Assembly (NCBI RefSeq): GCF_003334335.1 | Contig: NZ_QOWQ01000052.1 | DNA length: 20,350 bases | Source of the DNA: Escherichia coli | Lineage (GTDB): Bacteria > Pseudomonadota > Gammaproteobacteria > Enterobacterales > Enterobacteriaceae | Direction: 5' to 3' (one strand) | Shown: in pieces, positions 18,355 through 19,413 of the stretch | Position numbering within the stretch: the stretch's first letter is position 1 | Layout of the letters: every line of letters starts with the position of its first letter | Program-made: the position numbers and the translations under genes | Notes under the pieces: generated by a model | The model's input: only the letters and a program-made list of their open reading frames with translations | What the model was told of the DNA's origin: nothing | The model's database searches: none

Positions 18355-19045
18355 CTTGTAAAGCCTTTATCGTTTTTTTATGCTCTGGATTAATATAATC
18401 ACTACATCTATCTGAGCAATCTGTTGTTGATGGACATGTCAACCCATGGTCATTTACAGCCAAGTCTTTTTTATTATCTTCAATCATTTCAGAATGGGAT
18501 AGCTTTACTTTTCTGCCGTACATACCGAACAGATTTAACCCGTAATCTCTAATCTCTTTTTCATAACCCAGCCCTTTCGCCGATCGGCTAACACCAGCGT
18601 CATTTAATTTAGACACTCGACAAAATGCCATACAATGGAAAAATTGATCAGTCCCACCTAAATTTAATCTCTTCATATCTTCATAAGTATCAGATAATAT
18701 ATCCCATGCTCTTTGATGGTTTAGTTGATCTTTTCTTCTTATTAGCGCTACATCTGCGGGACTTAACCCTAATGGATCAATACCATTCACCGGATTCAGC
18801 GGATACGCATACAGACTCCATCCCCCCTCCAGCCCTATCGGGTCCTGAGTGATATACCGCCCCTGCAACGGATCGTAGTACCGGTTCCGGTTGTAGTACA
18901 GCCCCGACTCCTTATCATACTGCTGCCCCGGCAGCCGGTACGGCTGGTGCAGGTGATGCGGGTTCTCTTCATTCAGCTGGTTGCCCCACTCATCATACTC
19001 CCCGCTCCACGCAATGTTTCCATCCGCATCCATCAGCGCCAGCAT
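18335..19045 (-). pseudogene. ylbH: orphan Rhs C-terminal toxin fragment (short core remnant plus variable CT domain)
   Basis: The first ~94 codons (…[15 protein letters not shown]…[16 protein letters not shown]…DPLGL) are homologous to the end of the Rhs core seen in rhsD at ~19960-20242, followed by a distinct ~142-aa Cys-containing C-terminal domain. No SD is visible and the ATG overlaps the ybbC stop (TAATG), so there is no N-terminal Rhs body. Confidence 0.75.
18764..19045. repeat. Rhs core-end direct repeat, copy A (in ylbH)
   Basis: About 230-280 bp aligning to 19960-20242 at roughly 85% identity by eye, e.g. GGGTCCTGAGTGATATACCGCCCCTGCAACGGATCGTAGTACCGG in both copies. Boundaries are approximate. 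Confidence 0.7.
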
Positions 19046-19413
19046 TATTTACTATGTAGGAAATTCAAAACACATCCATTTTTCTTATTAATTTCTATAA
19101 TAAATACACCACCCGCAACTTCATAAGGTAACTTTGCTCCCTCAACAACCCAACTATCTGGTAGTTCCGTAATTAAATATGGTTTTTCTTCTTCTGCAAT
19201 CCGTTCGCCATAGCGATACCTAACATATATTTCAGCTAATTGTATCGCCATTGTTTCAGTTTTTACCGTATTTTTAACAGAGTATTTATCTAAATGTAAT
19301 TTTTCCACATACCTCATAAAAATAATGTTTTCATCAGAACCGTAAACAGCTGTCTCATTACAGGCAAATAGTATAAAAAATGAAAGCATCGAAAATATTG
19401 AACTATATTTCAT
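19045..19413 (-). CDS. ybbC: Rhs-associated immunity-like protein with N-terminal signal peptide / possible lipobox, 122 aa
   Basis: ATG at 19411-19413 with AAGGAG upstream, 39 bp after the rhsD stop. N-terminus [18 protein letters not shown] has a signal-peptide-like hydrophobic segment ending LFAC. AT-rich codon usage. Confidence 0.75.

Follow-up and report, generated by a model that had tools for sequence, protein, structure and literature searches.

RhsD is an Rhs protein of Escherichia coli that ends in a toxin domain (RhsD-CT), and the small gene ybbC follows its gene in a 20,350-nucleotide stretch of contig NZ_QOWQ01000052.1 (assembly GCF_003334335.1), the whole of which we call the window. 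We consider it reasonably probable that YbbC is exported and probably lipid-anchored and blocks RhsD-CT from the periplasmic side, the toxin acting in the envelope and not as a nuclease or RNase. By sequence comparison the whole window shows 100% identity to E. coli K-12 MG1655, and rhsD-ybbC is an uncharacterized gene pair of this best-studied of bacteria; related toxins, which share the domain DUF4329, are widespread in metagenomes from soil and marine environments. Both the pair and the domain families to which it belongs have already been catalogued: RhsD-CT (PF14220) and YbbC (PF15631) are the very Tox-JAB-2/Imm-NTF2-2 pair of Zhang et al. 2012, who suggested by analogy with RadC that toxin JAB domains may be nucleases and grouped them with nucleic-acid-targeting toxins. 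Later in silico surveys of type VI secretion system (T6SS) effectors label DUF4329 'RNase'. The compartment predicted here appears to be new for DUF4329 and Imm-NTF2-2 and contradicts these current annotations. In the searchable literature on ybbC/rhsD, yhhH/rhsB, Tox-JAB-2, DUF4329, and Rhs combined with JAMM, we found no assay, no functional or localization study, and no structure.

The ybbC gene (19045-19413; this and all features below lie on the reverse strand) encodes 122 residues, is annotated in K-12 as 'YbbC/YhhH family protein', and starts 39 nucleotides after the rhsD stop codon. A Shine-Dalgarno sequence, AAGGAG (19419..19424), sits 5 nucleotides before the ATG, and the start that includes the signal segment is therefore taken to be the real one; no comparable ribosome-binding site precedes the internal Met codons of the gene. 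Codons 1-17 (19363..19413) specify a predicted signal peptide with Lys2 in the n-region and an h-region spanning residues 5-17. Residues 3-19 are uncharged, and hydropathy peaks at 2.6-2.7 (Kyte-Doolittle, over 9 residues). Next comes Cys18 (TGT, 19360..19362), the candidate lipidation site at position +1 of the lipobox L-F-A-C, with Asn at +2. The earlier note on this DNA had pointed to a hydrophobic signal segment ending in LFAC with Cys as the candidate site, and the translation, the Shine-Dalgarno sequence, and agreement with the PROSITE PS51257-type lipoprotein rule (charge, h-region, small residue at -1, Cys18) all bear it out. Because only 2 of the 204 ATG-started open reading frames (ORFs) of at least 60 residues within the window match the lipobox rule, ybbC being one of them, the signal and lipobox are not readily ascribed to chance. 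Among the 14 other real genes of the window, a signal-like score was obtained only for ybbY, which encodes a membrane transporter, and for glxR, which has a Rossmann N-terminus.

The close paralogues of YbbC are about 50-56% identical to it in the mature domain, and their N-termini have diverged strongly yet are still signal peptides. The N-terminus of K-12-type YhhH contains KK-ILFRNCVIVSLFVFTYNTWA, with QC after the cleavage point, and the signals of other forms, from E. coli and Salmonella, close with HNGWA before Asn or Asp. Granted export, there is an appreciable, if minority, chance that YbbC is not a lipoprotein and is instead cleaved by signal peptidase I (e.g., after Ala17 or near Gly25) to give a soluble periplasmic protein, the LFAC sequence being coincidental. 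Several observations weigh against a lipid anchor in this way. Phe at -2 makes YbbC miss the classical lipobox [LVI][ASTVI][GAS]C, and no lipobox is present in the closest paralogues (YhhH and the Salmonella forms), whose cleavage sites are of the ordinary A-x-A type (TWA before Q, GWA before N or D). Most signal-bearing members of the wider family (80 of the 109 described below) likewise have no lipobox, and the RefSeq and UniRef names do not say lipoprotein. In one YbbC allele (P0318, found on 33 contigs) Ala17 is replaced by Val, giving LFVC, which breaks the lipobox requirement at -1 and leaves the signal segment intact. On the other side stand the match to the PS51257-type rule, the presence of lipoboxes in 21% of family representatives, and the retention of Cys18 in nearly all E. 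coli YbbC alleles, the exception being the rare A17V variant. On these sequence features, YbbC is probably lipid-anchored on Cys18, though with some uncertainty, since its close paralogues have ordinary signal peptides.

Toxin domain and fold of YbbC

Only the 3' end of rhsD (19453..20350) lies in the window, whose edge cuts the gene. It encodes the end of the Rhs core (Pfam RHS, PF03527; NCBIfam RHS_core and Rhs_assc_core, TIGR03696 and NF041261), which closes in PxxxxDPxGL, and the C-terminal toxin domain. The boundary between core and variable domain is the motif DPMGL (19963..19977, read from the translation); a DPxGL boundary is common to all Rhs-linked homologues examined. The 169-residue toxin domain (19456..19962) contains six Cys and matches DUF4329 (PF14220) with E=2.6e-37, placing it in Tox-JAB-2, a family of predicted JAMM-type zinc hydrolases. 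Its predicted JAMM residues are E54 (19801-19803), H99 (19666-19668), H101 (19660-19662), S115 (19618-19620), and D118 (19609-19611). All of these, E54, H99-T-H101, S115, and D118 (E..HxH..SxxD), are invariant in the 50 diverse DUF4329 domains that were aligned.

The structural model of the toxin domain is confident and adopts a JAB/MPN fold; its best structural neighbors are isopeptidases, and RadC is also among the neighbors. The known JAMM/MPN isopeptidases (AfJAMM, PfJAMM1, Rpn11, BRCC36, AMSH, Cap3 of the cyclic-oligonucleotide-based antiphage signaling system CBASS, and BilC) are cytoplasmic and act on ubiquitin-like conjugates. Identity between the toxin and these proteins, RadC included, is only 8-19%, and the toxin differs from them in an extra N-terminal helical region and in its six Cys. 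The tunnel that accommodates the ubiquitin tail is reported not to be conserved (Zhang et al. 2012). At its other end, RhsD begins MSGKPAARQGDMTQYGG, which is PAAR-like by eye (contig L017, 5122-6321, outside the window), and its first 400 residues contain no transmembrane segments. Given this short PAAR-like start and the lack of transmembrane regions in that part, RhsD does not have the prePAAR/transmembrane domain architecture, which is linked to effectors that act in the cytoplasm.

In mature YbbC (19048..19359), residues 55-122 (19048-19251) match the complete Pfam model Imm-NTF2-2 (PF15631; E=6.8e-26, model positions 1-68 of 68), and NCBIfam assigns no family. A sequence search of solved structures found no match for YbbC or for the RhsD toxin domain. 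The structural model of YbbC (mean predicted local distance difference test score, pLDDT, 87.4) has a detached N-terminal helix at residues 4-16, of lower confidence, which corresponds to the signal; beyond it, a second helix packs against a sheet of four strands, an arrangement of the cystatin/PepSY/NTF2 type. Neighbors of the model include PepSY domains, YpeB, the inhibitory propeptides of fungalysin and vibriolysin, the periplasmic domains of VirB8 and DotI, cystatins, and latexin. As modeled, YbbC belongs to a fold class that is rich in extracytoplasmic protease inhibitors. It resembles the PepSY, M4-propeptide, and cystatin-type inhibitor domains in fold only, without a sequence relationship, and inhibition of the toxin by YbbC is accordingly put forward as a proposal.

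Export signals among relatives

A profile of the mature Imm-NTF2-2 domain recovered 989 representative clusters at E<=1e-3. Among the best 140 full-length representatives, 29 (21%) carry a lipobox and 80 another signal-like N-terminus, together 109/140 (78%), against 12% of shuffled controls; the classifier is a heuristic of our own that tries alternative start codons and may overcount, and the absolute rates in this and the following census are approximate. Forms of about 75 residues that start at the domain itself also occur, one of which (P0066, on contig L011) has no room for an upstream extension. Since such signal-less forms exist, the signal is an informative addition to the domain and not a by-product of its fold. 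The database entries of some relatives start downstream of the likely start and omit the signal (the L008 gene call; the 88-residue YhhH form P0301). Zhang et al. 2012 listed Imm-NTF2-2 as 'E. coli only' and mentioned neither signal nor lipobox, whereas the family recovered here extends to 989 clusters and most of the representatives examined carry export signals. Export is, as far as it can be predicted from the N-termini, a trait of the Imm-NTF2-2 family.

The family, of which P0050-P0191 are members, also includes tandem two- and three-domain proteins (e.g., P0062, P0067, P0087, P0100) and many Bacteroidetes-like lipoproteins, and members are found in poly-immunity arrays as well.

The association with DUF4329 toxins was examined from the side of the toxin. 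About one third of complete E. coli genomes (1856/5426) carry the rhsD-ybbC module, and a gene of the ybbC type lies directly downstream of a DUF4329 toxin gene also in Salmonella, Scandinavium, Rahnella, and the E. coli YhhH loci. A metagenome scan, for which the query was a 6-sequence alignment of the clade with the motif GDYHTHG, returned 80 loci with 70 distinct downstream proteins; this census covers the GDYHTHG clade, and the RhsD-type clade was sampled by hand. Signals or lipoboxes are present in 54/70 downstream partners (77%), compared to 17/72 other long ORFs of the same loci (24%; Fisher p=2e-10). In the signal-bearing partners, the start codon typically overlaps the stop codon of the toxin gene in the sequence ATGA. 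At least three families, apparently unrelated, are represented among these partners, which are found behind PAAR, Rhs/YD, and other delivery modules.

Loci checked by hand in which the downstream protein bears a signal are those of Salmonella, Scandinavium (two modules), and Rahnella, a second DUF4329 type of E. coli and Salmonella, and two more contigs, one of them a high-GC Rhs locus. In the other (L021, 1593-2946), the DUF4329 toxin is carried on a short YD-repeat protein that starts with its own lipoprotein-type signal (MGKGFQGFCLILLLLAC), and the partner downstream is signal-bearing too; because both carry signals, toxin and partner would both be extracytoplasmic in the producer.

Cysteine content was considered as a marker of the site of action, the six conserved Cys of RhsD/RhsB-type toxins denoting periplasmic toxins stabilized by disulfides and Cys-free clades going with cytoplasmic immunity. 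This marker was rejected, as the Cys-free metagenomic DUF4329 toxins mostly have signal-bearing partners.

A second, apparently unrelated family of DUF4329 partners is common in soil metagenomes. Its members are about 110 residues long, or about 190 if duplicated, and share the motif ..LKWIHAAEPEF..LDLDKYT..; the loci include L029, L032-L037, L040, L044, L046, L049, L051, L072, L073, L079, L091, and L093. Most members have signal peptides, and a signal-less variant of 87-99 residues is found in L024, L027, L028, and L087.

On a Scandinavium sp. contig (L008, 1039-5467), three orphan Rhs C-terminal modules lie in an array. In the first, a toxin of no identified family is accompanied by an ankyrin-repeat protein whose N-terminus is hydrophobic; in the second, a DUF4329 toxin is matched with a member of Imm-NTF2-2. 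A divergent DUF4329 toxin and a small partner make up the third; the database call for this partner begins at an internal Met, and the signal peptide is lost.

Site of toxin action

By the rule that an immunity protein sits where its toxin acts, the predicted location of YbbC points to the envelope as the site of action of RhsD-CT. The rule that an exported immunity protein indicates a periplasmic target is stated explicitly in a Salmonella survey (PMC10469887) and is standard in the field; a preprint on Shiga toxin-producing E. coli applies the same logic to Tli1. RhsD-YbbC shares this logic of exported immunity with the Tae/Tai amidases, the Tge/Tgi muramidases, the Tle/Tli lipases, in which Tli is a lipoprotein, and Tlde1/Tldi1. 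The Tae, Tge, Tle, and Tlde1 effectors have demonstrated substrates in the cell wall or membrane, whereas RhsD-CT is a JAMM-fold hydrolase by sequence and model and travels inside an Rhs cage, not as cargo. A further likeness is found in the Rhs toxins of Bacteroidetes with Tox-JAB-1, whose partner Imm65 was singled out by Zhang et al. 2012 as the only lipoprotein immunity protein of their collection (signal peptide and lipobox). There too a JAB-fold toxin on an Rhs protein is matched by a lipoprotein immunity protein; the sequence families and the phylum are different, and the two systems are compared by description only. On present evidence, both clades of JAB toxins, Tox-JAB-1 and Tox-JAB-2, have exported immunity proteins.

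In the mechanism we propose, signal peptidase II would process YbbC, Cys18 would carry the lipid, and the protein would go to the outer membrane, where it would face the periplasm; Asn rather than Asp at +2 sends lipoproteins to the outer membrane through the Lol pathway. Neighboring cells would deliver RhsD-CT on a type VI secretion spike of the PAAR-Rhs kind, and periplasmic YbbC would bind the toxin and block its JAMM active site. Unchecked, the toxin would do its harm in the periplasm or elsewhere in the envelope; its most plausible activity is that of a metallo-(iso)peptidase, which would cleave a bond, peptide or isopeptide, in the cell wall or in proteins of the envelope. In the cytoplasm of the producer it would be harmless, being either encaged in the Rhs shell or without a substrate. 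The site of toxin action, the lipidation, the physical inhibition, and the substrate are what we infer in this scheme. The earlier note had argued from an exported immunity protein to an envelope-acting toxin. The premise has held: the export signal is real, recurs in the paralogues, and is found in 78% of the 140 family representatives and 77% of the DUF4329 partners. The step from there to the envelope is less secure in view of signal-less partners and of fitness data from K-12.

These same data are accommodated by the view that RhsD-CT is a nuclease or RNase acting in the cytoplasm and that the YbbC precursor neutralizes it while still unexported, or on the inner side of the membrane. We judge this unlikely, though it retains some weight. 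The RadC analogy of Zhang et al. 2012, repeated as 'RNase' in later papers, agrees with the appearance of RadC among the structural neighbors of the toxin model. A minority of DUF4329 loci, roughly one in six, have signal-less partners: 16 of the 70 partners were scored as such, of which about 11 are genuine and the rest errors of ORF picking, and partners without a signal are found in a PAAR-DUF4329 locus and in a Burkholderia Rhs locus (L013, L015). For Salmonella, Table 2 of the survey cited above (PMC10469887) enters 'No' signal for three DUF4329 partners. All of this tells against an envelope target, and so does the behavior of ybbC in K-12. That strain has, to our knowledge, no T6SS, and for this reason a loss of fitness upon loss of ybbC is hard to explain by immunity confined to the periplasm; if the effect is due to RhsD, then toxin and immunity protein would have to meet inside the producer. 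Such a loss was seen in genome-wide screens of laboratory E. coli, in which ybbC knock-down by CRISPR interference (CRISPRi) or transposon insertion lowered fitness under many antibiotics; one screen found ybbC 'universally responding' together with degP and yacG, and others reported effects with trimethoprim and colistin (PMC12063145, PMC8767339, PMC9687012). The phenotype may reflect activity of RhsD-CT in K-12 or may be an artifact, either polar or guide-related.

Several lines of evidence speak against a cytoplasmic nuclease. We found no nuclease experiment in the searchable literature, and the best structural neighbors of the toxin are isopeptidases. Lys2 and the positive-inside rule place the YbbC domain in the periplasm. 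Export of 77-78% of the partners and family members, the partners coming from apparently unrelated immunity families, is hard to explain with a cytoplasmic target, and exported partners accompany both JAB toxin clades.

It is distinctly improbable that YbbC protects against envelope stress independently of RhsD, its adjacency to rhsD having no functional meaning in K-12. This would suit the depletion of ybbC knock-down and insertion mutants, together with degP, under many unrelated antibiotics; these screen phenotypes, however, are open to polar or guide-specific effects. The gene order, the tight spacing, and the linkage of the family to DUF4329 toxins in E. coli, Salmonella, Scandinavium, and Rahnella argue for a role tied to the toxin, as does the occurrence of Imm-NTF2-2 members in poly-immunity arrays. 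A toxin that acts in the envelope may itself explain why ybbC shows up in antibiotic-stress screens. Finally, it is hardly credible that the signal is an artifact, owed to a misassigned start codon or to hydrophobicity that arose by chance: some relatives' database entries do start downstream without it, but the ribosome-binding site before Met1 has no counterpart at internal Met codons, and the signal is conserved in the paralogues and, far above controls, in the family.

A broader proposal follows the same lines and is offered more tentatively, as a real but less than even possibility. DUF4329/Tox-JAB-2 domains, and perhaps those of Tox-JAB-1, may be widespread extracytoplasmic JAMM-fold zinc (iso)peptidases, delivered into the periplasm by Rhs, PAAR, or Sec carriers, that break a bond in the envelope, for instance the isopeptide link between Lpp and peptidoglycan or a cross-link within peptidoglycan. 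Inhibitor-like immunity proteins, exported and in some cases lipid-anchored, would restrain them. If RhsD-CT does act in the envelope, JAMM hydrolases would be a new enzymatic class among antibacterial effectors that target this compartment, and an extracytoplasmic role would be the first for JAMM enzymes. The 'RNase' label that is spreading through surveys of T6SS effectors would be wrong, and K-12 would carry an example in rhsD-ybbC as well as in the DUF4329 toxin that accompanies yhhH.

The ylbH module and other loci

On the reverse strand, the gene order continues from rhsD-ybbC to ylbH and ybbD' and, further on, to mnmH, allS, and the allantoin/glyoxylate region. The ylbH gene (18335..19021) is annotated by RefSeq as a pseudogene without an N-terminus and encodes an orphan Rhs C-terminal fragment, with a Pfam RHS match and a weak serum-amyloid-A-like Pfam match in the toxin domain. 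YlbH is 43% identical to the Salmonella homolog, and the toxin domain has five conserved Cys and the motifs FFHC.AFCRVSK and GL[TS]CP....CS.RC. Overlapping the end of ylbH is a truncated ybbD (18094..18354), which encodes the 86-residue N-terminal piece of YbbD and is the candidate gene for immunity to the ylbH-type toxin. Residues 11-33 of this product (18256-18324) form a strongly hydrophobic segment, in agreement with the transmembrane helix that had earlier been noted in the ylbH-linked protein.

In Salmonella, YbbD is intact (171 residues; PF26610; L002, 3344-3859), has a similar hydrophobic N-terminus, and directly follows a ylbH-type toxin (the pair spans L002, 2697-3859); a Pfam search with the intact Salmonella protein gave no match. 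The same pairing of a ylbH-type toxin with a YbbD-type protein occurs in Rahnella (L023, 2669-3217), where the YbbD-type gene runs off the contig, and the hydrophobic YbbD N-terminus was seen in K-12 and Salmonella only. Read from these sequences, ylbH/ybbD' of K-12 is a second module built on the same logic, now decayed, whose partner is predicted to be membrane-anchored.

A scan of species-representative genomes for relatives of the toxin returned three loci only, all on E. coli-like contigs within metagenome-assembled genomes (MAGs). Two contigs from Lachnospiraceae and Flavobacterium MAGs (L006, 381-2201; L007, 114-1349) carry an E. coli-type DUF4329 Rhs C-terminal fragment together with a YhhH-type protein, and this module is most likely E. 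coli contamination of the MAG bins. Just downstream of the YhhH-type module on these contigs is a 281-residue HEAT-repeat-like ORF, recognized by eye, which we take to be YibA.

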